Assembly (NCBI GenBank): GCA_963667705.1
Contig: OY763937.1
Coordinates: forward strand, 515,821 to 579,820
Source: Alphaproteobacteria bacterium
Lineage (GTDB): Bacteria; Pseudomonadota; Alphaproteobacteria; UBA828
Direction of reading: 5' to 3'
DNA length: 64,000 nucleotides
In this document: piece after piece, positions 4,097 through 29,797 of the stretch
Position numbering within the stretch: the first letter of the stretch is position 1
Layout: the number at the start of each line of letters is the position of its first letter
Program-made: the position numbers and the translations under genes
Notes under the pieces: generated by a model
What the model was told of the DNA's origin: nothing
Databases searched by the model: none
The model's input: only the letters and a program-made list of their open reading frames with translations

Positions 4097-4106
4097 GGCG
4101 TCTGCC

Positions 4107-5018: not shown

Positions 5019-5219
5019 CTCACGTCTCCTGTCCTGTCCCCGCGATTTCTCGTTCTAGCACCACAACTATAGCGCCTTCCAGCAGAACGCCAAGAAACGA
5101 CCGGAAACCGGGGAATAATTCGTGAAATTGCGGCCCGTTGCGGCCTACGCTCGACAATTCGGAAAATAAATCCTAGACCACAAGCGACCGAGACAACGCA
5201 ACCAGAGCGGAGGCGACCC

Positions 5220-6251: not shown

Positions 6252-6272
6252 CCTGCATTCCCGGCCGGCGTC

Positions 6273-9536: not shown

Positions 9537-9757
9537 CGACCGGGCCGCAGGCCCGGCCGGCGCGACCGCGCCGGCGCGCGAAGCGCGTAGCCAAGCGAGC
9601 GGAGCGAGCGTCCGTTGCCAGGGATTCCTAACCATTCCCTCACGTTCCATAAGTTACTGAAATAGAGTTGCATATGCAGTGCGCTTGGCCCTTGCGTTCC
9701 CAGCCGTTCCCTCCCATTATTGAAACAAGTGTGGGACGCAACGTGGGTGGAATATCC

Positions 9758-11857: not shown

Positions 11858-12007
11858 GGCCATGCCGCAAGTTTGGCAATCGATCCGGCTCAAGGAGGCC
11901 CAACGATTTCAACCCAGCAGGTGAAGCGCGCCGAGCCCCTGCCCCATCAAGCGATATCGTGGTTCAGGAATTGACCACCCTGGACGGCGGTAGCAGCGGA
12001 GAGCCGC

Positions 12008-14430
12008 ATGGCGCAATCGGATACCTGTGCCGGGGAGGCCGCCCGGATACGCGAGCGCCTGGCACTGCTCGACGCCGAGCGGGCGGATCTTGAGAAGCGG
12101 CTTGCGGAGCTCGCGCGCTCGACTTCGATGCAGCTGGCGAATGCGAGCCCCGGCGGTACGGTGACCAACCGTTCGCCCACGAACGACAAGATCGCGCTCT
12201 TCCGGACGCTCTTCGGCGGCCGGGAGGACGTGTATCCCCGGCGCTGGGAGAACGCTGCGAAGGGCAAAGCCGGGTACGCACCGGTCTGCGCCAACGAGTG
12301 GAAGCCCGACGTGTGCCACAAGCCCCGGGTGCGCTGCGGCGTCTGCCCAAACCAGGCCTTTGAGCCGGTCACCGAGGAAGCCATCGAAAGACATCTTCGC
12401 GGGCACCACACGATGGGCGTCTATCCGATGCTGGCCGACGATACCTGCCGGTTTCTCGCAGCCGACTTCGACAAGGAGACCTGGCACCGTGACGCGGGCG
12501 CTTATCTCGACGCCTGCCGCGCGAAGGGGATCCCGGCGGCGCTCGAGCGCTCGCGCTCGGGCAACGGCGCGCATGTGTGGTTCTTCTTCGAAGACCCCGT
12601 ACCGGCATCGCTGGCTCGCCGCCTCGGCGCCCACCTCCTGACCGAAGCGATGGAACGCAATCCCGATATCGGCTTCCGCTCCTACGACCGGTTCTTCCCG
12701 AGCCAGGACACGGTGCCCCAGGGAGGATTCGGCAACCTCATCGCGCTCCCCCTTCAAGGCGGCCCGAGGGAGAACGGCCACAGCGTGTTTCTCGACGCAG
12801 ACTTCGAGCCGTGGCCGGACCAGTGGGCGTTCCTCTCCGGGCTCCGGCGCCTTACTGGGCGGAGGCCGGAGTGATCGTGGATGAGGCCGGCCGGCTGGGC
12901 CGCGTCGTGGGGCTTCGCCTGCCGCTCGACGACGACGATGAAGAGCCCTGGACCGCGCCGCCGTCGAGGCGAAAACCGCTGCCTGCGATCGCCGGAGTGT
13001 TGCCCGAGCGCATCGCTGCCGTGCTGGCAGATCAGATCTACATTCCGCGTGAAGGCCTGCCGCCAGGGCTGGTCAACCGGCTCGTGCGACTCGCGGCTTT
13101 CCAGAATCCTGCCTTCTACGCCGCGCAAGCAATGCGTCGCTCGACCTTCGGCACGCCCCGCGTCGTCGCCTGCGCCGAGCTTCTCTCGCATCACATTGCA
13201 CTTCCGCGCGGTTGCCTGGCGGCGATGGAGCACCTGCTCGAAGAGCTCGGCATCCGTCTCGATCTGCAAGACAAGCGTTTCGCGGGCCGTCCGGTCGAGA
13301 CGACATTCCTCGGTGAATTGACGCTGGAGCAGGCGGCGGCAGCCAATGCCCTGCTCCAGCATGACACCGGCGTGCTGGCGGCGACCACCGCGTTCGGCAA
13401 GACAGTCGTCGCGGCATCGCTCCTGGCGACCCGCAGGGAAAACACCCTCGTCATGGTTCACCGCCGTCAACTCATGGACCAGTGGATCGCACGGCTCGGG
13501 GCGTTCCTCGATCTGCCGGCTTCAGCGATCGGGCAGATCGGCGGCGGCAAGCGCAAGCCCACGGGCGTCGTCGACGTTGCCGTCATCCAGAGTCTCGTGC
13601 GCGGTGACGAGGTGGACGACATCGTCGCCGACTACGGCCATCTCATCGTCGACGAGTGCCACCATCTCTCCGCGGTCAGCTTCGAGAAGGTGGCACGCCG
13701 AGCGAAGAGCAAGTTCGTGCTGGGGCTGTCGGCGACCGTGACACGCCAGGACGGTCACCATCCGATCGTGTTCATGCAATGCGGCCCGGTGCGGTTCCGG
13801 GCGAGCGCGAAGTCCCTCGCCCGTCAGCGCCCCTTCACGCATCGGACGTTGCTGCGCCCGACGGCGTTCCGCCTTCCCGACGACATCGCGGAGGAGCGCC
13901 CGCCGATCCAGCAGATCTATGCGGCGCTTGCCGAGGACGAGGCCCGCAACGATCTGATCTTCGACGACGTGCTGAACGCGCTCGAGGCGGGCCGCTCACC
14001 GCTCGTCCTCACCGCGCGCAAGGAACACGCCCGCCGGCTTGCCGAACGGCTCGACCGGTTCGCGCGGAACGTGCTGTTCCTTCGCGGCGGCATGGGGGCG
14101 AAGCAGCGCCGCTCGGTCATGCAGCGCCTCGAAGAGATCCCCGATGCCGAGGAGCGGATCCTGGTCGCGACGGGGCGCTATATCGGCGAGGGGTTCGACG
14201 ATGCGCGCCTCGATACGCTGTTCCTCGCGATGCCGGTCGCGTGGCGGGGGACGCTCGCGCAGTATGTTGGGCGGCTGCATCGGCTACATCCGTCCAAGTG
14301 CGAGGTTCTGGTTTACGACTACGTCGACGAGGCGGTTCCCGCACTGCGACGAATGACGCAGAAGCGCGTCCAGGGCTACCGCAGCCTCGGCTATTCGGTC
14401 GAACGGCCCGGCGGTGAAAGCACTGTGTGA
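12008..14430 (+). pseudogene. Frameshifted gene for an archaeo-eukaryotic primase (AEP/PrimPol-like) N-terminal domain fused to an SF2 DEAD/DEAH-box helicase. It resembles the conflict-system AEP-helicase proteins that annotation pipelines label 'TOTE conflict system' (name recalled from memory, not checked).
   Basis: Frame 2 (12008-12874) encodes the AEP-like region (CxxC...C..C, NGAHVWFFF). Frame 1 continues from about 12860 with Walker A (TAFGKT), DECHH (motif II) and a helicase C-terminal domain. The two reading frames overlap and switch near 12845-12870. Confidence 0.6.
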
Positions 14431-15380: not shown

Positions 15381-17876
15381 CTACGCGATCTTCCGTGAGG
15401 CAACAAACTCCCGATACGGCGCAAATGCGGCTGCGACCTGTTCGGTGGTGAGGCCGAAGTCCTTCAGGCTATATCGATGCGGTGGCTCCCGGCGACGTTG
15501 TTCCGCCTGCCGTTCGAGCCAGCTCTCCATATCGGCCGCAGCCGCCGGCTCGAGCCGCCAGTCGAACCGTTCGTAAATTTCGTTGACCACCGCCATCGGG
15601 TTCTCGACCAGGTCGCGGTAGCTCACATCGACCCAGCGCGCCTCGAGCTCGGGGCACGACGCCCGGAACCGCATCGCCTCGTTGAGCATGCCGCTCATCA
15701 GGTCCAGCTGCTCGGCACCGGTGTCGTGCCGCGGGCGCGGTTCGATGGAGACGGAGCGTATCCGGTCCACAAGGCTGTTCCACGATCCCATAAACTGCGT
15801 GGGCTCGCGATGGGTCTGGATAAAAACCGCATCCGGGTAGTTCGCGAGCAGCGCCTCCAGCTCCATGAGATGGAAGGGCATCTTGAGCAGCCAGCCCTTC
15901 CCGGCATCGGGCTCGCGCTGCCGGCGCTGCCAGGTGAAGTGCCGCATGACGCGACGGTGATAGGCGTAGGCATTGTCCGAACCGGTGGCGGCAAGCCAGC
16001 TGCGGTAGTCCGGCACGTAGTACGCGACGGCGTTGACCCAGGATGCGAAGGACTGCCTGAGGATCGGGAAATCCTCCTCGGGCTCGTCGATATCGATGCG
16101 GTGCATTTCGGCGAACTGATCCACGACCCGAATGGAGTCCAGCAACTCCTTCACGTGAGCCCGGCGCGGGTCGCCGGCGGTGCGCGCGACGGAGCCGTAC
16201 TCTCCGCTTGCCAGAACCGGCTCCGACAGCTCGTAGCGACGCAGCGTCCAGAATCTTCCGTCGCGCGCCATCATCCGGTGCAGAAACGTGGTGCCGGTTC
16301 GATTGATCCCCACGATGAACACCGGACGCACGATCTCCTCGCGCTCGATCTCGGGGTGCTGCTGCCACTCGCGGGCGAGCGCCGCATTGTTGCGAAGCTG
16401 GCGGTTCAGTTCGTAGACGAGGTGCGGGCGTCTCTCCTTCAGCAATCCGGCCTGTGGTGCGCTGAGTACCTCCACAAGGCGCTGGAATCCCGTACGCATC
16501 CACGCGGGAAACGTGTGGTCGAAGGGAACGCCGACGCGTTCGGCGTAACCCTCGGCCTGCGCCATCAGGCGGTCGAGGTCCAGGCGGGCTTTCGGCACCG
16601 GATAGGGCCACCCGTCGCCCTGTCGCCGTATCCAGTCGTAGGAGCGCGAATGCCGGAGGAGCAATGCCGGCCACTGGACAGGAAAGGGACAGTCCTCGCG
16701 AATGGCGCGATCGTCGACCGGAGCAACGCCGCCGGCCTCGCCGTCCGCGAACCAGTACGGTGCGAAGTAATCGAGAAGCGTCCACAGCCCGTGCAGCGGA
16801 GAGCGCTCTCCAAGCGCCTCGCAGGCACGCTTGAACGTCTCGTATGGAACTTCGCGCAAGTAGAGGCCGAAATCGGCCGGCCCGAAATCGTCGTGCGGAG
16901 GTTGCGGATCGCAGCAATGGTAGATTGTGAACCGCCGCTCGGGATTCGCCGAGATTGCGGCGCATATCTCGGTGAGCGTATCCACGGGCTCGGCACAGCT
17001 CTGTATGGAGAAGCCGGCGGGAGCCATTTCGACCTGTATCGCCGCGAGGTAGATGGAGAGCGCGACGGCGCTCGCGTTCGTGAATCCCGTGCTGGACATC
17101 CCTGTCTGCGGCAGGCGAAAAATCGCCACCGGCAGTCCGGCCGCGTTCGCGAAGAGCAGGACCTGTTCGGAAACGAGCTTGCTCCACGGGTATCCAAGGA
17201 AGCCGAGCGGCAACACCCTCTTCATGGTTGCCAGATCGGGCTGCATGTGGTGCTCGATACGACTGCGACTGAATTCGTTCGAGAAATTGCAGAAGTACTC
17301 AGGGAAAACGGCCATCGTGGAAGCGTAGAAGACGTGCTTGAAACGCGTTCGCAGGCACAACGCGAGCACATTGCGAAGACTGGTCGCGTTCACGTCGCGT
17401 ATCGAGGAGTAGGACGACACGAGGGAGAGGTCGGCGGCAAGGTGGTAGACCGCGTCGATGCGTCGGCACAGATCGTCGAATTCCGCATTGCTCAAGCCGA
17501 ATCGAGGCGCGCAAATATCCCCGGCCACGACCCGGATGCGCGGCCCGAATGCGTCGTCCCAGATCTCGGCGTGCTCCAGGGCGGCGCGTATCCGCGCGAA
17601 GCCATGCTCGACGCCGTCCGTGCGGACCAAGCAGTGCACCACGAGGCTGTCGTCTTGCCGCAGGAGATCGCGCAACAGAAAGCGGCCCACGAACCCGGTG
17701 GCGCCGGTCAGCAGGACTTCCCGGAAGTCGTTCGCCGATACCGGCTCGGCCGGCGATTCCTCCCCGATGGTGGAATGAACGAATCTGCGCAAACCGTCGA
17801 GGTCGCGCTGGCACTGCATCGGCAAGCGACCGGCGAGGGAGGGCACCGCGCAGGAAGCGGGGAGCGTTTCAGCCAT
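15381..17876 (-). CDS. Bifunctional thioester reductase (SDR-type R domain) and sulfotransferase fusion protein
   Basis: N-terminal LLTGATGFVGRFLL NAD(P)-binding motif and YPWSK (YxxxK), matching NRPS/PKS terminal reductase domains. C-terminal VFIVGINRTGTTFLHRMM is a PAPS-binding 5'-PSB loop of the sulfotransferase family. Confidence 0.8.
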   Translation of the reverse strand: MAETLPASCAVPSLAGRLPMQCQRDLDGLRRFVHSTIGEESPAEPVSANDFREVLLTGATGFVGRFLLRDLLRQDDSLVVHCLVRTDGVEHGFARIRAALEHAEIWDDAFGPRIRVVAGDICAPRFGLSNAEFDDLCRRIDAVYHLAADLSLVSSYSSIRDVNATSLRNVLALCLRTRFKHVFYASTMAVFPEYFCNFSNEFSRSRIEHHMQPDLATMKRVLPLGFLGYPWSKLVSEQVLLFANAAGLPVAIFRLPQTGMSSTGFTNASAVALSIYLAAIQVEMAPAGFSIQSCAEPVDTLTEICAAISANPERRFTIYHCCDPQPPHDDFGPADFGLYLREVPYETFKRACEALGERSPLHGLWTLLDYFAPYWFADGEAGGVAPVDDRAIREDCPFPVQWPALLLRHSRSYDWIRRQGDGWPYPVPKARLDLDRLMAQAEGYAERVGVPFDHTFPAWMRTGFQRLVEVLSAPQAGLLKERRPHLVYELNRQLRNNAALAREWQQHPEIEREEIVRPVFIVGINRTGTTFLHRMMARDGRFWTLRRYELSEPVLASGEYGSVARTAGDPRRAHVKELLDSIRVVDQFAEMHRIDIDEPEEDFPILRQSFASWVNAVAYYVPDYRSWLAATGSDNAYAYHRRVMRHFTWQRRQREPDAGKGWLLKMPFHLMELEALLANYPDAVFIQTHREPTQFMGSWNSLVDRIRSVSIEPRPRHDTGAEQLDLMSGMLNEAMRFRASCPELEARWVDVSYRDLVENPMAVVNEIYERFDWRLEPAAAADMESWLERQAEQRRREPPHRYSLKDFGLTTEQVAAAFAPYREFVASRKIA

Positions 17877-18136: not shown

Positions 18137-21100
18137 TCAGGACTCCGACGTCATTTCGTTTCGGCTCGCACAGAGCACCGGCGGAAAGTGATCTTCCAGG
18201 ACGCTTGCGAATTCCGACGGCCTTCGGCGCCCGCGGAGCCGACCGGAGAGAGGCGCGTCCGCGCTCTCCACTGCATCGGTCTCGCCTTCCACTTCCTCGG
18301 GCTGTTCCGCTCTGTGGACGATCGCATGCGCCAAGGACTGGCAGGTGGCGGTGGTCATCAGCTCCAGAGCGCTGACCTGGAAGTTGAACTGATTCTGAAG
18401 AAACGCCACGAGCTCGGCAACGGAGATCGAATTGAATCCGAAACTCGCCAACGGCTCGTCCATGTCGCCTTCATCGTGGCCGCATAACTCGGCGACCTTC
18501 TCGGCGATCTGCGTCATCACGGTTTCGAGCGTGAGCCGGTCGTCGGAATGACCCTGGAACGCATCGTGGTTGCTCATCAGGCGGCCGATGCGCATGTAGT
18601 CCGCAGAGTCAACGGTCAACGGAACCCGCTTGAACAGCGCGGTCACAAGATGGTCGCTGTCGGACAGTCTGCGCAGCGCGTAGTCGAGGTTGGCGATTGC
18701 GAAGTGAACGCTCACCGGGGGCATGCCGGCCATCCTCAGCATGCGCAGTACATGGTGGTTACGCGAGGCCATGCCGACCTCGGCGACCGCCGCAATGTTG
18801 TAGGACAGCGCCGGCAAACCCTGCCCGCGGCGCCACGTTGCGAGGCCATCGAGGTAGGCGCTGGCGGCGCTGTAGTTGATCTGTCCGGGATTGCCGAAGG
18901 TCGAGGCAGTGGACGAGACCATGACGAAGAGGTCGAGCGGATGCCCGGCTGTCGCCCGGTGAAGATTCAGCGCGCCGGTCGCCTTGGGAGCGAACACCGT
19001 CTCCACGGATTCCCGCGACATGGTGTCGAGCAGACGGTCATCGAGTACACCGGCGAGGTGAAAGACGCCCTTGAGCGGGCGGCGCAGGCTGGCGACGCAG
19101 CGCTCCACGTCCGCCGCAATCGCGACATCGCCCGCGACGATGTCGATCTCGCATTCATGGGCCATGTATTGCAGCGAGCTCGATTCGCGCAACCAGTCGG
19201 CGCTACGGCGACGCTCAGGGTCCCGATCCATCAACGTGAGATGGCGGGCTCCGACTGAGACGAGATAGGGCAGCAGGCACAGACCGAATCCGCCGAGGCC
19301 GCCGCTCACGAGGTAGGTCGCATCGGGGTCGAGCAGCGGGCGCCGGTCGACGATCGGGAACTGCGGATGAACACCGGCCGGCGGGGACCTGAGCACCAGC
19401 TTCCCCTGATGCTTGCCGCTGGTCATCAGGCGCAGGGCCTTCGCGTAGTCCTCGTAGTCGTAGACGGTGATCGGCAACGGCGGCAGTTCGCCCCGTTCGA
19501 GCAGGTCGAGACAGGTCTCGGAGAGTCGGCGCAGGAGCCAGGGGTCGTCGACCATCAGGCGATCCACGTCGACCGCGGCGAAGCGCAGGTTCTTGCGGAA
19601 GACGTAGAGGCCCAGCGGATTATCGGAGTAGATGTCGACCTTTCCGATCTCGCAGTGCCAACCGCCCGGACGCAAGGCCTCTAGACACAGCGCGAGGTGA
19701 CGGCCGGCGAGGGAGTTCAGGACCACGTCGACACCTTCGCCGCCTGTCGCTCCCATCAACTGGTCGTACCAGCTCTCGCTGTGCGAATCGAACGCCGCGC
19801 TCGCACCGAGCTCGAGAAGCCGATCACGCTTGGCCTCGCTTCCCGCCGTTGCGTAGATCGTCGCCCCTGCGCGCCTGGCAAGCGCGATGGCGGCCTGTCC
19901 CACTCCGCCCATGGCGGAGTGAATGAGGACGCTCTGACCTTCGGACAGCCGAGCCAGGTGAACGAGGGCATAGTACGCGGTGAGGTAGACCGAGAGCGAA
20001 GACGCGGCTTGCTCCATGTCGAGGCGGGCAGGCTTGGAAAACACGAGGGGGGCGTCGACGACTGCCCGATTGGCGATACATCCGCCCTGGGTGAAGATCA
20101 CCTCGTCGCCGGCCAGGCAACGGTCCACCCCCTCGCCGACCCGGCGCACGACTCCACTGGCTTCCATGCCGACCTCCAGCCCCAGCGCGGAGCGTTCGTA
20201 GGCCGCCGAGGGCAGCAGTCCCAAGGTCGCCATGACATCGCGGAAGTTGAGCGCCGCCGCCTTCACGTCGACCTCCACCATCCCCGGCCCGAGCGCCGCG
20301 GGTTCGTACGTCTTCATCTGCAACCCGCCGATCTGCCCCGGGTTGTCCAGGCACAGGCGGTAGGTGGTTTCGTCGCCGGCGGGGACGCAGGGAGCATGGT
20401 CGCGAATGCTTTCAATGCGGGGTACCCACAGGCGGCCCCCCCGCACCGCGACCTCCCGATCGCGCAGATCGCAGCGAGCGAGCGAGGCCAGGGTCTTCAG
20501 GTCGTCGTCGGCACCGAGATCCACCAGACGGAAGTCGATTCCGGCATCCTCGCCCACCTCGATCGCCATGCTGCGAACCGCGCCCCACAGGCCGCACCCG
20601 CGCGGGTCTTGAACGTCAAAGGCGGCGCCCCGAGTCACGACGGTGACGCGGCACCGGGACTCCGCATGCTCGGTCCGGTACGACACCAGCGCCCGGACGA
20701 GGGCGACAAAGGCCGACACCACCCCCTCACCGGTAGGGTCCTGCGGATCGCGACCGCAGAAGAAGTCGACGGCCTGCAAGTCCGCCACCCGAGGCCATTC
20801 GTCGATGTCGTGGACCTCGCCGCAGACGAGAGGCTCAAAGGCAATCGGGTACACCTCCGGATCATCGAGCAGGGACGGCCAGTCCTGCGCCGGGCTCTGC
20901 GGCTCGCCCACCACCCAACGGGGTGTCGGAACAGCCGTCGCATTCAGGGGTTTCGCCCACGACTGCGGGGCCTGAAGCAGGGTGCTGCGCGCGGCGGCGC
21001 GAACGACGGCCCAACCGGCGCCGGGTTCGAGCACGTCGCCTTCGGAGTGAGAGACCAGTGCCAGGCCTCCGGCCACCAGCAAGCGTCTCCAGAACTCCCA

Positions 21101-24100
21101 GTCCCCGGGGGCGAATGCGGCCGCATCGCGATGCAGAAGGAGCACCTCCACCGCAGCCGGGCGCAGCAGGCCCTCATCGAGTGCAGTCGCCTGGCACTCG
21201 GCCGCGTCGATGCATTCGAATCGCAGAGCGGCGTCGGCTGCGTGAAACGCCTCGTAGCTCTTGCCGGCGCTATCTTCATCGTGGCTGACGAGCCAATACT
21301 CGCTCTGCCGTCCGGCACCCGACAGGTGCCCGACGCATTGCTCGAGCATGGTCTGCTCGGGCTCCCTGCACCCTGCGAACTCCAAGACGCGGCACGCGCG
21401 GTCCGCTCCGTCAACGGGTTGTTCGAGAGCGGCGAGCAACTCCGCAGGGTCGATGTCGCCGGCGGACAGCCGGTCGGCGAACGCCCGGCCGTTCGGCAGG
21501 AACTTGGGCTGCCAGACGATCCGGTGCTTGCTGTGAGGCAGGTCGCCCCTTTTCAGGTTCGAGTCGAAATGGATGTATTTCTGGACGTAGGCAACGAGGG
21601 CTCCATTGGATTGGTCGTAGAAGCTGATGCTGCCCGACAGCCGCTCGCCCTCGGACGGGTTGAATTGACCCTTGTCGTCGATATCCACGGCTCGATCGGG
21701 AGGATCCCTCAGAAGACAGGTCAGCCGCGGTCCCGACGCCACACCGAGAAACGTCATGTGCTCGATTCGCCGCGGGATGCACAGGTGATCGGGAGTAAGC
21801 AACATGTTGTAGAGAAACGCCTGAAATGCGCCGTCGATCAGCGGGGGGTAGAAGACGTACCCCTCATCTCTGCCGTCGGCCCACAGGGTTTCGTCGATTT
21901 CGAGATCGGCCAGGAAGGACCGGGTCGCCTCGTCGCGCTGAATCTGCCGGATGTTTCTGCAGTGGGGGCCGTAGCCGTACGTATCGCCCAGAACCGCCTC
22001 GAAACGTTCGTAGAGTTCCTCTCCGGAGGCATGCTTGAGGGGCGCGTAGGCGGAGCGGTCGATGTCTCCGAGCCGGCCTGGAGCGTCCAGCGCCGGCGGG
22101 TCGCTCAACACGCGCACCTTGCCCCGACAGTGCGACTCGCTCCTGGTGTCCTCGCCGTAGGGCCGGGTGGAAATGACGAAGGTGTATTCGGACGGGGAAT
22201 TGGCGACCGGATGCAGCGCCGTCTGCAGGCGCACCGGCGTTCTCGGGACCGGGCAAGGCTGAAGAAACTCGATCACGTCGAAGTGCACCGGCGCCCCGCC
22301 GAACGCCTCGAGAATCATCTCGATGTAGCCCGTCGCCGGCATGATCGCCGCGTGATGGACCACGTGGTCGGCGGCCCACGGAAAGGCCCGGTCAGAGAAA
22401 CGCGCCTCGAACATCAGGTGATCGCACGGGATCCGGTGACCGACGAGCGGGCCGTGAGAGTACTCGGCTCCCTGATTGTGGAACTCGTCGTCCGCCATGG
22501 TATCCGCCTTCTTCTCCTCGTCCTTCGGATGTCCGGGCAGCAGGTGAGGAAGGGGCTCCGGGCGCGGGTACCGGGAGGCAAAGTCGAGCGGCACGCCGGC
22601 TCTGAACAATGCCCCCAGCGATTCGAGAAAACCGATGCGCGTATCGCTGTCGCGCATGAATGTCGCGATCGAGGTCGGGGCGGACACACCGTCGGCCAAG
22701 CATTGTGCGATGACGGGCTGCAGCGCGCAGTGCGGCGCAAGCTCGAGCACCGCCTGCGGCCGGTGGTCGCGCTTGACGGCGTCCATCGCGGCGGCAAAGC
22801 GCACGGGCTGGCGGATGTTCGACCACCAGTACGCGCTGTCGAGGCGCTCGGTGAGGCTGCCGGTCACGGATGAAACGAAGGGAACGTCGAGGTCGAAGGC
22901 CAGCTCGTCGAGGAAGGACAGCGCCGCCGCCACGTCCTCCCGGATGGCGTCCATCGCCCGGGAGTGAAAGGCGATGTTTCCGGGAACCAGTCGATTCTGC
23001 AGGTTGCGCCGTTCGAGCTCCTCGATGACAGGCTGCAAGGCGGTTTCGCTGCCGCAAATGACGGTATTGGCCGGCGCATTCTCGCAGGCGATCTCGACCT
23101 GGACCGGCCGGTTCGCATCGAGCCGGAAGGGAACTTCGAGGGTGTCCAGCAACTCCTCGACGCCGCAACGATCGAGGCCGATCGCCAGCATACGGCCCGA
23201 CCCGGCGGCGCGTTGCTGCAACGTGGCGCGATGGAAGACCAGTCGCGTCGCGTCTCCCAGGGAAAGCGCTCCGCAGGCGTAGGCTGCGGCCACCTCGCCG
23301 GAGCTGTGGCCGACCACGCAGTCCGGATAGACTCCCCAAGTCTTGAACAATTCGACGAGCGCGCACTGGAGCATGAAGATCACGGGCTGGGCCAGCTCGC
23401 ATTCGTCGAGCTCCGACTGCGGCGCGGAGAAGCAGGCCTCGCGTAGCGAGACGTCCGAATGTTCGCGCCAGTGCGCCTCGATCGCGTCGATGACGCGGCG
23501 AAATACGGGGTCGGCGCCATAGAGCGCGCGGCCGCAACCGGCCCACTGCGTGCCCTGTCCGGCGAACACCATCGTCAGCCGCGGCTCGCCCTCCTCTGCG
23601 GTCGCAACCGGGGCGCGTTCCTCCGCAACGGCATCGAGCCCCTCTTCGAGCTCCTCCAAGTCGCGCACCGCAAGCGCGGCGCGCGTGGAGAAATGGGTGC
23701 GACGGCGGCTGAGATTGCCGGCCAGCGTATAGAGATCCACAGGCCGCCGGTCGAGCATCTCGCGAAGCTGCCCCGCGCTTAGGGCGAGCGACTTCGCATT
23801 GCGCGCCGAAAGGGGAATGACGTAGCCGGCCTCCGGAGCCAGGGCGACCGACCAGATGCGGGGACGCGCCGGGCGGTACTCGCGCACCACACAGTGCCCG
23901 TTGGCGCCGCCGAAGCCGAAGGAGTTGATGCCGACGACGACGGGATGTTCGGGAAAGGGCTCGACCTCCGTCTGCACCCGCATCGGGCAGCGGTCGAAAT
24001 CGATTTCGGGATTCGGCACCAGGTAGTTCTTCGATGTCGGCGCGAAGGTGCGGCGCTGCATCATCAGGACGACCTTCAGCATCGCGCAATGGAATGCGGC

Positions 24101-25192
24101 CGCTTCCATATGCCCGACGTTGCTCTTGACGCTCGAGACCCGAAGCGGCACCTCGCGATCGAACCCGCCGAACGCCTCCGCGATGGCATTGCCTTCGATC
24201 CGGTCTCCCACCACGGTTCCCGTCGCGTGGGCTTCGACGTAGTCGAACTCCCGGGCAGTGCGCCCGGCACGGGCGGCAGCGGTGCGCATCAGCTCGACCT
24301 GCGCGTGACGGGTCGGCGCGACGATGTTGCGACCGGGGGGCAGGCCCACGGCGTCGTCCGCCGCGCCGGCCGCGTTGACCGCGCTCGCCTCGATCACGAC
24401 ATGAATGGGATCTCCATCGCGCTCCGCCGCGGCCAGGGGCTTCAGCGCGAAGATGAATGCGCCTTCGGAGCGCATGTAGCCGTCGGCCTGGGCGTCGAAG
24501 GAGTGGCACTTACCTTCCGGGCTGATGACCCCCATGAGGTTGAAGCTGCTGCTCAGCCTTGCGCTGCCCAGGTAGGTAACAGATCCGACGAGCGCCTGAT
24601 CGCAGTCGCCGCACTGAAGGGCGTTCATGGCCGAGTGCAGCGCGCTCAGACCGGCGGAACATGCCGTGCAGTACGCGATCGAGGACCCCATGAGGTTGAA
24701 GTGGTACGAGATCCGGTTGGCCAGCATGGCCACGCTGATGCCGATGACGGAGTACTCGCTGACGCCATGCTGAGGCCGCCAGCTCGACACGGCCGGAACT
24801 TGTGCCCCGATGAACACTCCGGTGGAGCTATTGCGCAGTGCATGGAAGTCCCAGCCGGCATGCTCGATCGTCTCCCACGCGCAGTTCAGCAGCATCCTGA
24901 CCTGCGGTTCCGTCTTCATCATTTCGTTGTGGGACATTCCGAACAGTGTGCGGTCGAAGAGCAGCTCGTTGCTGTCGCGGATCAGTCCTTCCCAGGGACT
25001 GGCAAGGCGCCCCGGGCCAGAAAACTCCCCGATCGGCAGGTGGCCTTTGCCGTAGCGATCGGTGATCGGCTCCTGGACGATCTCGCGCTCGGCGAGCAGG
25101 CGCCAGAAATCGGAGTCCGAGCGGATGCCACCGGGCAGGCGGTGGCCGTATCCCACGATGGCGACGTCGCTTTCTCTCCTCTGCGACGTCAT
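18137..25192 (-). CDS. Type I polyketide synthase, fully reducing single module (KS-AT-DH-psiKR/linker-ER-KR-ACP). FAS/mycocerosic-acid-synthase-like. No thioesterase.
   Basis: KS active site TACSAGL with HGTGT and NVGH motifs. AT motif GHSSGE with IAFHS, which predicts malonyl specificity. DH HxxxAxxxxP-like motif. ER motif LIHSAMGGVGQAAIALA. KR Rossmann motif YLVSGGLGGFG. ACP motif GFNSIS. Confidence 0.95.
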   Translation of the reverse strand: MTSQRRESDVAIVGYGHRLPGGIRSDSDFWRLLAEREIVQEPITDRYGKGHLPIGEFSGPGRLASPWEGLIRDSNELLFDRTLFGMSHNEMMKTEPQVRMLLNCAWETIEHAGWDFHALRNSSTGVFIGAQVPAVSSWRPQHGVSEYSVIGISVAMLANRISYHFNLMGSSIAYCTACSAGLSALHSAMNALQCGDCDQALVGSVTYLGSARLSSSFNLMGVISPEGKCHSFDAQADGYMRSEGAFIFALKPLAAAERDGDPIHVVIEASAVNAAGAADDAVGLPPGRNIVAPTRHAQVELMRTAAARAGRTAREFDYVEAHATGTVVGDRIEGNAIAEAFGGFDREVPLRVSSVKSNVGHMEAAAFHCAMLKVVLMMQRRTFAPTSKNYLVPNPEIDFDRCPMRVQTEVEPFPEHPVVVGINSFGFGGANGHCVVREYRPARPRIWSVALAPEAGYVIPLSARNAKSLALSAGQLREMLDRRPVDLYTLAGNLSRRRTHFSTRAALAVRDLEELEEGLDAVAEERAPVATAEEGEPRLTMVFAGQGTQWAGCGRALYGADPVFRRVIDAIEAHWREHSDVSLREACFSAPQSELDECELAQPVIFMLQCALVELFKTWGVYPDCVVGHSSGEVAAAYACGALSLGDATRLVFHRATLQQRAAGSGRMLAIGLDRCGVEELLDTLEVPFRLDANRPVQVEIACENAPANTVICGSETALQPVIEELERRNLQNRLVPGNIAFHSRAMDAIREDVAAALSFLDELAFDLDVPFVSSVTGSLTERLDSAYWWSNIRQPVRFAAAMDAVKRDHRPQAVLELAPHCALQPVIAQCLADGVSAPTSIATFMRDSDTRIGFLESLGALFRAGVPLDFASRYPRPEPLPHLLPGHPKDEEKKADTMADDEFHNQGAEYSHGPLVGHRIPCDHLMFEARFSDRAFPWAADHVVHHAAIMPATGYIEMILEAFGGAPVHFDVIEFLQPCPVPRTPVRLQTALHPVANSPSEYTFVISTRPYGEDTRSESHCRGKVRVLSDPPALDAPGRLGDIDRSAYAPLKHASGEELYERFEAVLGDTYGYGPHCRNIRQIQRDEATRSFLADLEIDETLWADGRDEGYVFYPPLIDGAFQAFLYNMLLTPDHLCIPRRIEHMTFLGVASGPRLTCLLRDPPDRAVDIDDKGQFNPSEGERLSGSISFYDQSNGALVAYVQKYIHFDSNLKRGDLPHSKHRIVWQPKFLPNGRAFADRLSAGDIDPAELLAALEQPVDGADRACRVLEFAGCREPEQTMLEQCVGHLSGAGRQSEYWLVSHDEDSAGKSYEAFHAADAALRFECIDAAECQATALDEGLLRPAAVEVLLLHRDAAAFAPGDWEFWRRLLVAGGLALVSHSEGDVLEPGAGWAVVRAAARSTLLQAPQSWAKPLNATAVPTPRWVVGEPQSPAQDWPSLLDDPEVYPIAFEPLVCGEVHDIDEWPRVADLQAVDFFCGRDPQDPTGEGVVSAFVALVRALVSYRTEHAESRCRVTVVTRGAAFDVQDPRGCGLWGAVRSMAIEVGEDAGIDFRLVDLGADDDLKTLASLARCDLRDREVAVRGGRLWVPRIESIRDHAPCVPAGDETTYRLCLDNPGQIGGLQMKTYEPAALGPGMVEVDVKAAALNFRDVMATLGLLPSAAYERSALGLEVGMEASGVVRRVGEGVDRCLAGDEVIFTQGGCIANRAVVDAPLVFSKPARLDMEQAASSLSVYLTAYYALVHLARLSEGQSVLIHSAMGGVGQAAIALARRAGATIYATAGSEAKRDRLLELGASAAFDSHSESWYDQLMGATGGEGVDVVLNSLAGRHLALCLEALRPGGWHCEIGKVDIYSDNPLGLYVFRKNLRFAAVDVDRLMVDDPWLLRRLSETCLDLLERGELPPLPITVYDYEDYAKALRLMTSGKHQGKLVLRSPPAGVHPQFPIVDRRPLLDPDATYLVSGGLGGFGLCLLPYLVSVGARHLTLMDRDPERRRSADWLRESSSLQYMAHECEIDIVAGDVAIAADVERCVASLRRPLKGVFHLAGVLDDRLLDTMSRESVETVFAPKATGALNLHRATAGHPLDLFVMVSSTASTFGNPGQINYSAASAYLDGLATWRRGQGLPALSYNIAAVAEVGMASRNHHVLRMLRMAGMPPVSVHFAIANLDYALRRLSDSDHLVTALFKRVPLTVDSADYMRIGRLMSNHDAFQGHSDDRLTLETVMTQIAEKVAELCGHDEGDMDEPLASFGFNSISVAELVAFLQNQFNFQVSALELMTTATCQSLAHAIVHRAEQPEEVEGETDAVESADAPLSGRLRGRRRPSEFASVLEDHFPPVLCASRNEMTSES

Positions 25193-25444: not shown

Positions 25445-28400
25445 TTAGTCGTGACGACCCGCGGCGATCATCACCAGCGCCGGCAGCACGAACAGGATCG
25501 AAAGCGTGGAGAACACAAGTCCACCCACCATGCTGACGACGAAGGGCACGAACGCGATCAGCTCATCGCCGCGCTCATAGAGCAGGGGCGAGATCCCCAG
25601 CACCGTGGTGAGGGTGGTCAGGAACACCGGCCGGAATCGCTGCCGTGTCGCCGCGGCTGCGGCGGCGATGGCGGGGATCATCGCGTTGTCTCGGCGGATC
25701 GTGTTGTAGCGATCCAGCAACACGAGAGCGTCGTTCACGACCACGCCGCCGACGGCAATCATGCCGAAGATCGACATGGTGGTCAGGTCCCAGCCCAGGA
25801 TCCAGTGGCTCACGATCGCGCCTGCGAAGGCGATCGGAATGCCCACGACCGCAATCACCGGCTTCCAGTAGCTGCGCAGGAACGCCGCGATGAGGGCGTA
25901 GATCGCGATCAAGACGATGGGGACGAGAACCGCCAGCGTCTCGAGCATGTCGCCCTCGTCCCGCGCACCGGCTTCGACCTCGACAGTGAGGCCGGGATAT
26001 GCCGCCAGAAGGTCGGGAATGATCTGGTCGCGAACCTCCCGCCGCGCCTGAATCGGCGTGATCACCGCAGTGTCCGCCCGCCCGTTGACGCGCGCCGCCC
26101 GCTTGCCGTCGATCCGCGTCAGCGTCGCCGGCTCGCGCTTCTCGGTGATCGTCGCCACCAGCGAAAGCGGGATTTCGCCGCCACCCGGCCGATGGATTCG
26201 TTCGCTGGCCAGCTCGCTCAGGCTGCGCCGCCGCTCGGCCGGATACCTGACCACCACGTTGATTTCCTCGCGGCCCCGCTGGATGCGCTGGACATCCGCG
26301 CCGTGGAAGCTGGAGCGTAGCTGCTTTCCAATGAGCGCCGGCGTCAGCCCGGCAGCCTTCCCTACCGGGGTCAGCTCGATCTCGAAGTGGCGTTTCCCCA
26401 GCGCCAGGTCGTCATGGATGCCGTAGATCCCCGGCACGGTCGCCATCCCCGAGCGCAACTCGGCGGCGGCGCTTCTCAACGTCTCCATGTCGTCGTGCTT
26501 GAGCGAATAGGAAACGCTCGGCCTAGCGGCAATGCGCCCGGAGCGGAATTCGACTCTCTCCAGGTTCGCCACGGGACCGACGGCCTTGCGCCATGCCCGC
26601 TCGACTTCGGGCGCGCTCGCGGAGCGATCCACCTGATCGCTGAGATGCAGCCGCACGGAGGCGAGATGGCTGCCGTTCAGCCGCTCTCTGACTTTCCACT
26701 CCGCATCGATGTTGCCGACGATCATGCTCACCGCGTCGACAGGAGTTCCCTCAAGCTCGTCGTTGAGGCCGTGCGCCGCCTCGGCGAAGCGATCGGCTGC
26801 GGCCAGCGTCTCCTCGAACGGCGCGCCCACCGGCAGATAGATGTCCGCCTGCACGTTGTCGGTGCTGCTCAGGTTCTCGTCGAAGAGGACGATGCGAACG
26901 GTGTCGGTTCCGAGGAGCAGGACGGCAGCGACCAGAACCAGGAGTGCGCCTATGATCGACAGCCAGACGTTGCGCACGGCCCATGAGGCCGCAGGCGCCA
27001 CGACCCGGTCGCGCACCTCGTCCAGCCATCCGCCGACCTGGCTCTGCACGTCGCTCAGCGGAGAGAGGCTCCAGCGCCTTTCGTGAGACAGGTGAGCCGG
27101 AAGGATGAAGAATGCCGCAACGAGGGAGACGAGCAGGACGAAGATCGCGACGTAGGGAAACACGTTCACGATCTGGAACGCGGGCGACGTGATGAAAAGG
27201 AACGGCAGGAATGCCAGAATCGTCGTGATGGCGCCGATGGTGAGCGGGCCTACCATGGCACGCGCGCCGGAAATCGCTGCATCCAGCGCGTTCTTCCCCT
27301 TCTCGCGTTCCGCCGCGATGCTTTCCCCCACCACCACGGAATCGTCCACGACGATGCCCACCAGGAGGAAGAAGCCGAAGATCGTGCCGAGATTGAGCGT
27401 GAGGTCCGCAGCATCGAAGAAGAGCAGCGAGCCTACGAAGGACAGGGGGATGCCGACGGTCATCCACAATGCGATGCGGAGCTCGAAGACCAGAACGAGG
27501 CTGATGAACACCAGGATCGTGCCGATCGCTCCGTTCTTCACGATCTCCAGCAGCCGGTCGAATACGGGGCTGGCATTGTCGTTCCAGATTCCGACGCTCA
27601 CGCCTTCGGGCGGGCTGTAGGCCGCAAGCAGATTCCTGATGTCCTCCGCCATATCGACGACCGACTGCTGCTCGGCCGCATCGACGCGAACGAGCACCGC
27701 CGGATGGCCGTTGACCTCGGTAACCACGTCCTCGTCGACGAACCCGTCGCGAATCGTGGCGATGTCGCCGAGCGTCACGATCGTGCCGCCGACCCGGGTG
27801 ATGAGCGGAATGTCCTCGAAATCCTGGCCGACGCTCTTCTTGGCGACGGTGTGAAGAACCACGCTGCCGGTGTCCGTCCGTATCTCGCCCATGGTGAGGT
27901 TGAGGGACGCCCCTCTTATCGTCCTGGACACTTCGGCGATGGAAAGGCTGTGGCGGCGCAGTTCCTCTTCGCTGAGCTCGATCGTGATTTCGCGGTCGCG
28001 GGTGCCTTTCAGAGACACCTGAGAGACGGACGGCAGCGCCATCACGCTGTCGCGCAGGTCTTCCGCCGCGCGGCGCAGTCCGTCCTCGGACAGACTGGAG
28101 GACACGACCGCCAGCGTCATGACTTCGTGGGAGACCGTGAGAAGCTGGACGTCCGGCTGTTCCGCCCGGACCGGCGGGAAGTTCTCGATGCCGTCGATCG
28201 CACTCTGAATATCGTTGAAGACGGCGTCGGAATCCGCGAAGGTCGCCATCTCCACCGTGACCTTGCCGAGGCTCTGGCTCGCGGTCGATACCACGCGCTC
28301 GACGCCCGGCAGCCCGACGACGGCCTCCTCGATGCGGCGGTTGATGTCCTCCTCGACCTCCTGAGGCGAAGCGCCCGGATACAGCACCGACACGGCGGCC

Positions 28401-28600
28401 CGCCGCGATTCGAAATCCGGGTAGTACTGGACGATGAGTTGGAGCCCCGAAAGCACGCCGCCGACGATCAGCAGGATCATCAGCAGGTTGGCGGCAACGG
28501 GATTGCCGGCGAAGTAGGCGATCAGCCCCGACTTCAGGCCAGTCGGGCTCGGCTGCGCCGCGGGCGCGGCGTCGGTGCTGCCGGAGTCGGTCATGCTCAT
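25445..28600 (-). CDS. RND-family efflux transporter permease (AcrB/HAE1-like)
   Basis: 1051 aa, 12-TM architecture with two large periplasmic loops. The N-terminus is typical of RND permeases. Confidence 0.9.
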   Translation of the reverse strand: MSMTDSGSTDAAPAAQPSPTGLKSGLIAYFAGNPVAANLLMILLIVGGVLSGLQLIVQYYPDFESRRAAVSVLYPGASPQEVEEDINRRIEEAVVGLPGVERVVSTASQSLGKVTVEMATFADSDAVFNDIQSAIDGIENFPPVRAEQPDVQLLTVSHEVMTLAVVSSSLSEDGLRRAAEDLRDSVMALPSVSQVSLKGTRDREITIELSEEELRRHSLSIAEVSRTIRGASLNLTMGEIRTDTGSVVLHTVAKKSVGQDFEDIPLITRVGGTIVTLGDIATIRDGFVDEDVVTEVNGHPAVLVRVDAAEQQSVVDMAEDIRNLLAAYSPPEGVSVGIWNDNASPVFDRLLEIVKNGAIGTILVFISLVLVFELRIALWMTVGIPLSFVGSLLFFDAADLTLNLGTIFGFFLLVGIVVDDSVVVGESIAAEREKGKNALDAAISGARAMVGPLTIGAITTILAFLPFLFITSPAFQIVNVFPYVAIFVLLVSLVAAFFILPAHLSHERRWSLSPLSDVQSQVGGWLDEVRDRVVAPAASWAVRNVWLSIIGALLVLVAAVLLLGTDTVRIVLFDENLSSTDNVQADIYLPVGAPFEETLAAADRFAEAAHGLNDELEGTPVDAVSMIVGNIDAEWKVRERLNGSHLASVRLHLSDQVDRSASAPEVERAWRKAVGPVANLERVEFRSGRIAARPSVSYSLKHDDMETLRSAAAELRSGMATVPGIYGIHDDLALGKRHFEIELTPVGKAAGLTPALIGKQLRSSFHGADVQRIQRGREEINVVVRYPAERRRSLSELASERIHRPGGGEIPLSLVATITEKREPATLTRIDGKRAARVNGRADTAVITPIQARREVRDQIIPDLLAAYPGLTVEVEAGARDEGDMLETLAVLVPIVLIAIYALIAAFLRSYWKPVIAVVGIPIAFAGAIVSHWILGWDLTTMSIFGMIAVGGVVVNDALVLLDRYNTIRRDNAMIPAIAAAAAATRQRFRPVFLTTLTTVLGISPLLYERGDELIAFVPFVVSMVGGLVFSTLSILFVLPALVMIAAGRHD

Positions 28601-28612
28601 GGCCCGGCTCCG

Positions 28613-29797
28613 CTATTCCGACGCCTGCGCGGCGCTGACCTCGACTGCCAATCCCTCTCGCGCCCCCGTCAAGGTGCCGACGACGACGCCCTCGCCCGCG
28701 TCGAACGCCTCCACAACCACGCCAACGTCGGCGTGCCCCAGCGTGCGCGGCGCGACGGCCTTCAGCGCGCCGCCTTCGACGATCCAGACGCTGCCCCGGT
28801 CCTGAATTGCCGATTCCGGCAGTACGAGCACGTTGTCATGCACGGGCCCAGCGATCGAAACCTCCACGAACGAACCGGGGAGCGGCAGCGTCTCGGCCGG
28901 GTGAGCCGCAGCGAATTTCAGGAAGACCCTCGCGAGACGAGACTTGGGACCGATGATCGCAGACGTGCGCTCCACCACAGCGTCGTACGTTCCTGATGCA
29001 GTCCGAACCGTGGCGGAGCGACCGATGGCCGGCGCGAGATAAGCCAGACTGTCCTGCTCGATGGGCGCTCTGACCTGGAGCGCGTCGGTCCGATACACGG
29101 TGCCCAATGACGAGGCACGGCCGACCAGCTCGGCGGGACCGACGAACTGGCCGACATCGATATCCGCCGCTGCGACCCGGACGTCGTGAGGAAGGGATAT
29201 CTCCGTTCGATTCAGCCGGAGCTGCGCCAGCTTCTCTTCGGCCTGCGCCTTCATGAGCGCGGCTTCCGCCTTCGCTATGTGTGGCGCGCGGCGAACCGAA
29301 TCGGGAATGTCGGCTCCGGGGTGTTCGCGCGTGAACGAGGCTACGCTTTCCTCCGCCTTTGCCTTCTCGATCTGGACCCGGGCCGCAGCTTTCGCGACCT
29401 TCGCGGCGGCGACTTCGAGCTCGAGCTCGTACTCGGCCGGATCGACCCTGATGATGGTCTCGTTCGCGGCGATCGACCCGCCGTTTCTGAAACTGGGCGA
29501 GACCCAGACCACACGGCCGCCGACTTCGGACGAGACTCTCACGTTCCCGTGCAGCGTGACCCCGCCGGTTAGGTCGACCGTCAGCGCGTGTTCTGTTGGC
29601 GTCGGTTGAATGACCGCGACGGTTGGCTTGGCCTGCTCGACCGCCAGGTCGGAGATGGGGTCGCGATCCACGCCGCTCGGCGCCTGCGCGAAATAGAGCG
29701 CGACTCCGACGGCGGCCAATATCAGGATCAGCTGCGCGTAGCCCAACCATTTGGGACGGCCGGATCTACCTTGGGGCTCTGTCGTTTCTTGTGCCAT
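28613..29797 (-). CDS. RND efflux periplasmic adaptor (membrane fusion protein, HlyD family)
   Basis: N-terminal TM anchor, coiled-coil and lipoyl/beta-barrel regions. It lies immediately upstream of the RND permease, 12 bp away. Confidence 0.85.
   Translation of the reverse strand: MAQETTEPQGRSGRPKWLGYAQLILILAAVGVALYFAQAPSGVDRDPISDLAVEQAKPTVAVIQPTPTEHALTVDLTGGVTLHGNVRVSSEVGGRVVWVSPSFRNGGSIAANETIIRVDPAEYELELEVAAAKVAKAAARVQIEKAKAEESVASFTREHPGADIPDSVRRAPHIAKAEAALMKAQAEEKLAQLRLNRTEISLPHDVRVAAADIDVGQFVGPAELVGRASSLGTVYRTDALQVRAPIEQDSLAYLAPAIGRSATVRTASGTYDAVVERTSAIIGPKSRLARVFLKFAAAHPAETLPLPGSFVEVSIAGPVHDNVLVLPESAIQDRGSVWIVEGGALKAVAPRTLGHADVGVVVEAFDAGEGVVVGTLTGAREGLAVEVSAAQASE

Follow-up and report, generated by a model that had tools for sequence, protein, structure and literature searches.

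What does the giant single-module synthase encoded in the stretch of alphaproteobacterial DNA analysed here (the window, 64,000 nucleotides) make, and how did its gene come to lie where it does? An earlier note on this DNA had read positions 18137-25192 as a polyketide synthase (PKS) resembling animal fatty acid synthase (FAS) or mycobacterial mycocerosic acid synthase (MAS). We find that this span is exactly one open reading frame (ORF) of the minus strand, with an ATG start, 2351 codons and a third-position GC content of 0.82, which is typical of a real gene in a GC-rich window. Because its sequence motifs, architecture and gene neighbourhood all match, we identify the ORF as swfA, which encodes the core synthase of the cluster named swf for "sponge widespread fatty acid synthase", and hence as a new member of a described system rather than a new system. 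With moderate confidence, we propose that SwfA builds an acyl chain iteratively, that the chain would be released reductively, sulfated, modified by the product of swfC and exported, and that the genes for this pathway sit as cargo on an integrated mobile element.

The swf cluster was described in 2013 from sponge metagenomes by Della Sala et al. (PMC3908369), who listed as diagnostic of SwfA the motifs IAFH, GHSSGE and QCALVEL, HATGT rather than HGTGT, and DPQ[I/V]R rather than DPQQR. All the published signatures are found in the window protein. In an alignment of 119 sequences (118 homologues and the window SwfA), the source of all column counts given below, the acyltransferase signatures IAFH, GHSSGE and QCALVEL are conserved in 97-119 sequences, HATGT (residues 322-326) is present in every one, and residues 95-99 read E/D-P-Q-V-R. 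The SwfA homologues fall into more than 120 clusters at 66-92% identity, 118 of 120 being 2300-2400 aa long with the same domain set. The second PKS family reported, along with swf, as ubiquitous in high-microbial-abundance sponges is sup; assignment to the SupA family was considered and ruled out, as all the Swf-specific motifs are present. A scan of one genome per species recovered 32 related loci, all from metagenome-assembled genomes (MAGs), with SwfA proteins 59-92% identical to that of the window and hosts among the Paracoccaceae, other Alphaproteobacteria, Nitrospirales and Bryobacterales. Several of the bin names resemble those of sponge-metagenome bins. Two of the related MAGs bear the genus name Boseongicola, on whose link to sponges the literature was uninformative. 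Papers of 2022 and 2023 describe the distribution of swf as independent of bacterial taxonomy, and our neighbour-joining tree of SwfA, computed without bootstrap, likewise clashes with taxonomy: the Bryobacterales are nested among the Paracoccaceae, the Paracoccaceae occupy three clades, and one genome holds two divergent copies. This incongruence is to be taken as indicative only. We also observed two swf clusters on a single contig (OY759767.1; loci L001 and L020) of one Paracoccaceae MAG, whose SwfA proteins share 87% and 63% identity with that of the window; swfC adjoins one of these clusters and is missing next to the other.

The domain order of SwfA is ketosynthase (KS), acyltransferase (AT), dehydratase (DH), a methyltransferase-fold domain (psiMT), the structural half of a ketoreductase (psiKR), enoylreductase (ER), catalytic ketoreductase (KR) and acyl carrier protein (ACP). 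Pfam profiles recover the KS at residues 8-440 (positions 23873-25171, like all features of this gene on the minus strand), a KS-AT linker, the AT at 541-867 (22592-23572), the DH at 915-1150 in two halves (PKS_DH_N and PS-DH), the ER at 1616-1935 (ADH_N and ADH_zinc_N; 19388-20347), the KR at 1958-2137 (18782-19321) and the ACP at 2228-2291 (PP-binding; 18320-18511). Residues ~1150-1615 return no Pfam match even at E<=10; thus, the gross architecture that the earlier note had drawn, along with the unexplained spacer of about 400 residues within it, is real. The protein has no loading module, no thioesterase (TE) in the Pfam scan, and a tail of ~60 aa beyond the ACP without a domain match.

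The catalytic residues are retained in the KS, AT, DH, ER, KR and ACP. In the KS, Cys178, His322 (within HATGT) and His361 are each kept in 119/119 aligned sequences, and EPQVR (95-99) stands in place of DPQQR. The AT has its active-site Ser630 in GHSSGE (628-633) and Arg655, both intact and conserved across the family, together with QCALVEL (609-615) and IAFH (740-743), the latter shared by 118 of the 119 sequences. The NADPH-binding motif of the ER, HSAMGGVGQAA (1758-1768), is conserved in 115-119 sequences at each position save 1764, which alternates between Val and Ile. The GGLGGFG motif, Lys2070, Ser2094 and Tyr2107 of the KR are likewise intact and conserved across the family, and the domain further displays the Asn2111 position and an LDD motif (2050-2052) of the B type. 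The phosphopantetheine-accepting Ser2255 of the ACP lies in GFNSIS and is Ser in 119/119. Holo conversion of a SwfA ACP has been achieved experimentally (PMC3908369).

The DH (residues 915-1200; 21593-22450) is where our results depart from the earlier note, which had taken HHAAIMPATG as a degenerate form of the canonical HxxxGxxxxP motif. That string occupies residues 946-955, and in HMMER alignments with the RifDH10 structure 4ln9 and with human FAS the catalytic His falls three residues upstream of H946, at H943, in HVVHHAAIMP (nt 22337-22366): in register with human FAS, DHTLDGRVLFPATGY is aligned with DHVVHHAAIMPATGY. The motif is therefore H943-VVH-H-AAIM-P952, which keeps the His and Pro of HxxxGxxxxP and has the Gly alone swapped, for His; the apparent degeneracy came from a slip of register. 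H943, P952 and both residues of the DxxxQ motif (D1120 and Q1124) are each invariant in 119/119, and the Y, G and P of the G-Y-G-P turn (1073-1076) are found in 115-119. At the +4 position, 112 of the sequences have His and seven have Tyr; RifDH10 carries Asp there and MAS, by the match line of the alignment, also lacks Gly. From these alignments we conclude that the DH is catalytically competent and that its motif is not functionally degenerate, in keeping with the KR's LDD motif of the B type. An inactive DH was ruled out once the register had been fixed.

SwfA can thus be described as one fully reducing module with a FAS-like order, as the earlier note had proposed; it has neither a loading module nor a TE and is most plausibly iterative. 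The prediction of a malonyl-type AT also stands: the motif is IAFH, with Arg655, and not the YASH type that would have pointed elsewhere. A Ser-to-Phe swap at that AT position turns MAS towards malonyl-CoA (PMC11831141), and the malonyl prediction for SwfA follows from its having Phe where MAS has Ser.

As sequence methods alone could not name the domains of the spacer (a phmmer search against PDB sequences found nothing for it), we used structure prediction. An AF2 model of residues 1195-1625, built from an alignment of 26 family members less than 72% mutually identical, reached a mean predicted local distance difference test score (pLDDT) of 78 and a predicted template modelling score (pTM) of 0.77, and a second AF2 model of the region a pLDDT of 81.5. 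The model comprises a disordered linker, an alternating beta-alpha domain at ~1223-1410 and a Rossmann-like domain at ~1425-1600. In Foldseek comparisons with the PDB, the best matches over the spacer are the fungal highly reducing PKSs (HR-PKSs) PsoA and LovB and Dictyostelium Pks16, with 414-430 alignment columns; the psiME-psiKR-KR tri-domain of human FAS aligns over ~470 columns, and further fold matches are to human FAS (4piv, 5c37, 8eyi) and insect FAS (6fn6), whereas the modifying region of MAS-like enzymes aligns over just 233-268. Taken separately, the first half resembles isolated C-methyltransferase (C-MT) domains and ordinary class I methyltransferases, and the second half the structural KR subdomains of tylosin KR1, Lsd14, MAS and FAS. 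A family profile searched against the PDB matched in the psiKR part alone (PKS module 8g7w, residues 1515-1624); the psiMT part has no PDB sequence match. We hence assign residues ~1220-1410 (20963-21535), which have a class I methyltransferase fold, to psiMT and ~1425-1600 (20393-20920) to psiKR, so that the two guesses of the earlier note about this segment, a relic methyltransferase and a psiKR, both hold; the sequence VLEFAGCRE that it had singled out lies at 1269-1277. The spacing agrees with the folds. The unaligned stretch from the N-terminal half of the DH to the psiKR/ER measures 485 aa in SwfA against 315 aa in MAS in the HMMER alignments, and measured against human FAS the DH-to-ER stretch is 605 aa in SwfA and 596 aa in FAS. 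Because the fold matches and the DH-ER spacing agree, the architecture of SwfA is of the animal-FAS/HR-PKS type and not of the MAS type.

The canonical S-adenosylmethionine (SAM) motif I of methyltransferases is ExGxGxG. In psiMT the corresponding element (nt 21359-21388) reads E1271-F-A-G-x-R-E-P, with E, A, G, R and P each in at least 114 of the 119 sequences. Seven more distant members read IIELTDTEEP, IAEFAADAAP, VAEFSQTLEP, IMEYAGSNPP, VVELVSDRPV, FVEIAGQSLE and VAELADGRVP, with one Gly at most. No methyltransferase family of Pfam matches psiMT at E<=10, and with motif I as found no intact C-MT is evident in the DH-ER region, an outcome on which the earlier note had staked its reading. 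A psiMT-only profile searched against 1.84 billion proteins retrieved 60 representatives at E<=0.001, mostly short fragments; the full-length ones inspected were all Swf-type synthases, with no methyltransferase among them. The domain has ~190 aa, against 380-390 residues in crystallised C-MT domains. The psiME of FAS is close to ~190 aa as well. Most likely, then, psiMT is a structural relic of a PKS C-MT: the fold is apparent in the models, and we infer inactivity because the SAM glycine loop is missing throughout the family. We found no earlier description of this domain in the literature, and it is absent from the published SwfA domain list.

The most informative neighbour, which the earlier note had not mentioned, is swfB, directly downstream of swfA at a distance of 260 nt on the same strand (15381-17876, minus). 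It codes for an 831-aa fusion of a thioester reductase (R; NAD_binding_4 in Pfam, and 189 bits to the NCBIfam thioester reductase domain) with a sulfotransferase (ST), and its translation has intact the NAD(P)-binding motif GATGFVG, YPWSK (YxxxK) and the RTGTT loop for 3'-phosphoadenosine 5'-phosphosulfate (PAPS). A swfB gene follows swfA in 30/30 loci whose contig reaches past swfA. Outside the window, three proteins are natural SwfA-SwfB fusions with the order KS-...-ACP-R-ST: P0135 (3179 aa) and P0136, which is truncated at its N terminus, were both confirmed with Pfam, and P0137 (3183 aa) was read from its sequence. Two of the three show an amino acid composition in the style of low-GC genomes. 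Contiguous R-ST domains are mentioned in the 2013 paper for coccidian FASs alone (PMC3908369). The poorly conserved tail beyond the ACP contains a motif that is near-invariant in the 119 sequences, R-x-P-S-x-F-A-S-x-x-E-D-H-F-P (residues 2323-2337; 18182-18226), and P0135 and P0136, but not P0137, keep this motif in their ACP-R linker; SwfB may dock onto it.

Genes for PAPS synthesis recur near swf. A CysN/CysC fusion (sulfate adenylyltransferase and adenosine 5'-phosphosulfate kinase) lies ~150-600 nt past swfB in eight Nitrospirales loci (L008, L010, L012, L016, L023, L026, L030 and L031), and in two loci from Alphaproteobacteria, L015 and L028 (at 3390-6320), a cysD-cysNC pair precedes swfA by 3.6 kb. 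No CysN/CysC-type gene is found near the swf cluster of the window. Since the eight Nitrospirales loci share ancestry, we regard these neighbours as weak to moderate support for sulfation.

Upstream of swfA on the minus strand come a resistance-nodulation-division (RND) efflux permease of 1051 aa (25445-28600; Pfam ACR_tran, 428 bits; NCBIfam RND_permease_2) and a 394-aa periplasmic adaptor of the membrane fusion protein (MFP)/HlyD family (28613-29797; Pfam HlyD_3; NCBIfam RND_mfp). Such an MFP-RND pair adjoins swfA in 15/32 loci, from Alphaproteobacteria and Bryobacterales. Beyond it lies swfC (30060-31802, minus), which codes for a 580-aa B12-binding radical SAM protein with a DUF4070 domain, whose CxxxCxxC is kept in the cluster motif CPFDCEFC. 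The gene occurs within 10 kb of swfA in 23/32 loci. The best partial matches of SwfC are to TIGR04013 (an uncharacterised B12/radical SAM family), ApyD, an enzyme acting on ribosomally synthesized and post-translationally modified peptides, and the class B methylases PhpK, HpnR and KedN5, with further ones to HpnJ, BchE and the lipid-associated B12 radical SAM family TIGR04072 (rSAM_ladder_B12). Methylation is the commonest activity of this class of enzymes and, no curated family having matched, would be our likeliest guess for SwfC. The earlier note had named a B12 radical SAM enzyme adjacent to the synthase as the source of any branching; the gene exists and the same guess was made in PMC3908369, although the MFP and RND genes (25445-29797) intervene, so that it is not directly adjacent.

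Drawing these together, we propose that the AT loads malonyl units and that the module iterates to yield a saturated, unbranched acyl-ACP. The R domain of SwfB would then free the chain by NAD(P)H-dependent reduction as an aldehyde or alcohol, and its ST domain would use PAPS to furnish a primary alkyl sulfate; the R-ST offloading partner points to an alcohol bearing a sulfate, and not to a free acid. SwfC might act on one of the chain's unactivated carbons, with methylation as the most plausible change, and, if psiMT is indeed dead, any branching must come from SwfC. The MFP/RND pair would export the resulting anionic amphiphile. The scheme of iteration by SwfA, release and sulfation by SwfB and modification by SwfC is essentially the hypothesis of 2013 (PMC3908369), and in the literature on alkyl sulfates, R-ST proteins and swf products we found nothing that goes past it.

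The second part of our question concerns the setting of the cluster, which lies in an island of low GC (~9.6-53.3 kb of the window; GC ~0.65 against 0.72 in the flanks). At its left end, where GC drops from 0.71-0.74 to 0.64-0.69 at ~9.6 kb, stands a tyrosine integrase (9668-10981, plus; Arm-DNA-bind_3, Phage_int_M and Phage_integrase). To the left of swf follow an archaeo-eukaryotic primase (AEP) of the 'TOTE conflict system' type (11975-12874, plus; PF22548, 335 bits) and a ResIII/DEAD helicase ORF (12577-14430, plus). The helicase ORF overlaps the primase ORF by ~300 nt in another frame, and the two may be a frameshifted or programmed primase-helicase. To the right of swf come a TrwC-type relaxase/helicase (32404-36735, minus), which is the last backbone gene before the cargo, a YAcAr (YspA/cpYpsA-related SLOG) protein (37825-38760, minus), a single-stranded DNA-binding protein (SSB) gene and a type IV coupling protein of the TraG/VirD4 family (42999-44975, plus; T4SS-DNA_transf and TraG-D_C in Pfam, with ~30% identity to plasmid coupling proteins). 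The YAcAr gene, between those for the SSB and the relaxase, belongs to the conserved backbone and is also found in two sister elements, L034 and L035. Thus, integrase, relaxase and coupling protein are present in one compositionally distinct block.

The DNA of the window is 85-86% identical to that of the sister elements from position 41939 to 32404/32400, that is, until the stop codon of the relaxase gene. Past this point both sister elements have insertion sequence (IS) elements, joined in one by an Eco57I-type restriction gene and in the other by a TbpB-like gene and a toxin-antitoxin pair of the PhdYeFM/PIN type, and the window has swfC-MFP-RND-swfA-swfB. As the backbone homology stops at the relaxase and the sister elements carry other cargo, the five swf genes occupy a variable cargo slot just past the relaxase of an integrated element. 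Judged from gene content and comparison, this element is probably mobilizable rather than self-transmissible. Homologues of the relaxase (P0180-P0299) form more than 120 clusters at 71-100% identity, with up to six distinct copies on one contig (5.62 Mb) and four on another, of 3.33 Mb, where a SwfA homologue is found as well. This suggests that the element family has proliferated within these genomes. The closest swf relative, whose SwfA is 92% identical to that of the window, lies in an ordinary chromosomal context without integrase- or relaxase-element genes. A plasmid origin was considered and rejected: none of 72,556 plasmid records has a Swf-like spacer, and SwfA and the relaxase lie on a 4,150,400-bp contig, taken as one, from which we take the element to be chromosomal. 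Somewhat more tentatively than the pathway itself, and at a little short of even chances, we put forward that swf is cargo of an integrative mobilizable element of a multi-copy family, which might spread swf between phyla as a self-contained five-gene module for a secreted, sulfated and possibly branched long-chain alcohol, that is, an alkyl-sulfate surfactant.

Several points weigh against these proposals. On the side of the chemistry, iteration, chain length and starter unit are unreadable from sequence; GHSSGE is atypical of malonyl-specific ATs (PMC3908369); the sole published heterologous expression of swf gave nothing detectable (PMC3908369); we found no product of any swf cluster in the literature; and papers of 2022 and 2023 still call the function of swf unknown. 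SwfC reaches the cut-off of no NCBIfam family, and no swfC is found within 10 kb of swfA in 7/30 complete loci, each of which belongs to that half of the SwfA tree where the window falls. With regard to psiMT, the supposed relic is strongly conserved, with ~55% identity to the window residue, like the C-terminal half of the DH, and has near-invariant histidines after beta4 (H1354, 117/119) and beta5 (H1382, 119/119). As for the mobile element, we found no att direct repeats, there being none longer than 11 nt that link the left junction to 44-60.5 kb, and no mating-pair genes of a type IV secretion system (T4SS) among the ORFs scanned between 9.6 and 53 kb; the missing T4SS genes fit an element of the mobilizable type. 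No tRNA target was found either, the only tRNA gene, for tRNA-Gly (59767-59841), lying outside the island.

The conservation of psiMT raises the alternative that it is an active, non-canonical C-MT and that SwfA itself makes methyl-branched chains, as has been proposed for SupA. The fold is indeed nearest to genuine PKS C-MT domains, the domain is under purifying selection, and E1271, T1281, W1300 and H1382 are invariant in the alignment, H1382 and E/D1384 standing after beta5. PKS C-MTs have their catalytic His right after beta4, a site to which H1354 may correspond. A review-type paper, offering no data, also ties SwfA to methyl-branched fatty acids (PMC9864124). Yet EFAGxREP is a poor stand-in for ExGxGxG and the distant members have even less of a glycine loop; Pfam, the inspected profile matches and the halved size of the domain all speak against activity, and we consider this alternative quite unlikely. 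More probable than that, though still improbable in our view, is a function of the MAS type, whereby SwfA would take up a ready-made long-chain fatty acyl starter and lengthen it in one or a few rounds into a cell-envelope lipid, comparable to the mycocerosates or the acids of sulfolipid-1. No solved structure scores higher than MAS (741 bits, covering KS-AT-DH and psiKR-ER-KR), the best NCBIfam match is Pks2 of sulfolipid-1 synthesis (889 bits, far below the cut-off of 2400), and the lack of a loading domain makes a starter delivered in trans possible. However, the AT has IAFH rather than VASH, with the Phe that moves MAS towards malonyl-CoA (PMC11831141); compared with MAS, psiMT makes the DH-ER interval ~170 residues longer, in a spacing equal to that of FAS; and no FAAL/FadD-type ligase or PapA-type acyltransferase is conserved near swfA across the 32 loci. 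Of the MAS-like character given to SwfA by the earlier note, the sequence affinity therefore remains and the layout does not.

Two further alternatives concern the fate of the chain. Sulfation as a means of activation is an established strategy of PKS offloading (PMC3908369), and the ST of SwfB might create a leaving group, as in CurM and the olefin synthase Ols, so that the pathway would end in a terminal alkene or some other hydrocarbon that has lost its sulfate. The logic of CurM and Ols, however, requires that ACP, ST and TE be arranged in this order and work on a beta-hydroxyacyl-ACP; in swf the partner fused to the ST is a thioester reductase and no TE is present, the module is fully reducing and hence leaves no beta-hydroxyl, and the RND exporter and PAPS-synthesis genes beside many clusters fit a secreted, sulfated product. 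We judge this about as improbable as an active psiMT, or a shade more so. We give hardly any credence to the notion that, in the manner of Burkholderia WcbR or Sinorhizobium RkpA, SwfA supplies a capsular polysaccharide with its lipid anchor: this was the first annotation given to the poribacterial copy, and WcbR and RkpA are also single-module, FAS-like PKSs (PMC3908369), but the published KS tree parts Swf from WcbR/RkpA and the KS motifs differ (PMC3908369), and neither the 32 loci nor the window show conserved glycosyltransferase or capsule export genes. We accordingly retain reductive release and sulfation of a chain made by SwfA as the preferred interpretation.

The rest of the island and its surroundings were also surveyed. 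A stretch of particularly low GC (46000-53300; GC 0.52-0.60) contains two genes for TbpB-like beta-barrel lipoproteins (47749-50106 and 50206-51111, both minus) and an ORF of 532 aa without a Pfam match (51261-52859). The same stretch has in-frame tandem repeats with units of 84 nt (47014-47433), 195 nt (49263-49847) and 63 nt (52486-52697), and at 52836-52973 a piece of 146 nt shares 77% identity with cargo DNA of L035, one of the sister elements. Just outside the island lie genes for a DUF6635 protein (7669-8634, plus) and a class I O-methyltransferase (8871-9536, plus; Methyltransf_3, 227 bits). The latter is chromosomal, with a GC of 0.71-0.74, and we found no evidence for a role of it in the swf pathway.

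To what we found in the literature, our analysis adds the psiMT domain, the SwfA-SwfB fusions with the tail motif, the repeated occurrence of exporter and PAPS-synthesis genes beside swf, and the position of swf as cargo of a mobile element. No new enzyme class emerges and the product stays unrevealed; more than ten years after the first description, we found no swf product assigned in the literature. The orphan pathway nevertheless becomes somewhat more testable. The domain map is corrected to an animal-FAS-type layout with a presumably dead C-MT; the fusions and the PAPS-synthesis neighbours support reductive release followed by sulfation; and the dedicated efflux pump suggests that the product is secreted. 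The mobile-element context could explain the taxonomy-independent distribution of swf, and the compact, intact five-gene unit is a candidate for heterologous expression.

Among known systems, the published swf clusters (PMC3908369) share with the window the single-module KS-AT-DH-ER-KR-ACP synthase, its diagnostic motifs, swfB (R+ST) and swfC (B12 radical SAM). They differ in their order, which is swfA-swfB-swfC or swfA-swfC-swfB, whereas in the window swfC is upstream of swfA with the MFP/RND pair between them, and in that an integrase/relaxase element surrounds the cluster of the window. The nearest relatives of the window SwfA come from alphaproteobacterial MAGs, whereas later surveys reported hosts among the Nitrospirota, Latescibacterota, Acidobacteriota and Tectomicrobia. 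Animal FASN and Dictyostelium Pks16 have the same domain order, with a non-catalytic methyltransferase fold and a psiKR between DH and ER, and an AT motif of the xAFH type is shared as well. SwfA differs from animal FAS in its bacterial origin and in lacking the C-terminal TE, for which a separate reductase-sulfotransferase would provide release, and its psiMT has no detectable sequence similarity to the psiME of FAS.

MAS, the best PDB sequence match to SwfA, is likewise a bacterial, iterative, fully reducing single module without Gly at the +4 position of the DH, but lacks the methyltransferase-fold domain, has ~170 fewer residues between DH and ER, and shows VASH and GHSMGE in its AT where SwfA has IAFH and GHSSGE; it uses methylmalonyl-CoA and is primed by long acyl starters. 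The methyltransferase fold and its pairing with the psiKR find their best structural counterparts in LovB, PsoA and the cis-acting C-MTs of CurJ, DszA and PksCT. These C-MTs bind SAM, methylate and are nearly twice as large, an N-terminal helical lid included, whereas the Swf domain lacks the SAM glycine loop. CurM and Ols, finally, share with swf the use of a PAPS-dependent ST in chain termination; their ST is partnered with a TE and acts on a beta-hydroxyacyl-ACP, whereas that of swf is partnered with a reductase, would be expected to act on a primary alcohol and would leave the sulfate ester in the product.

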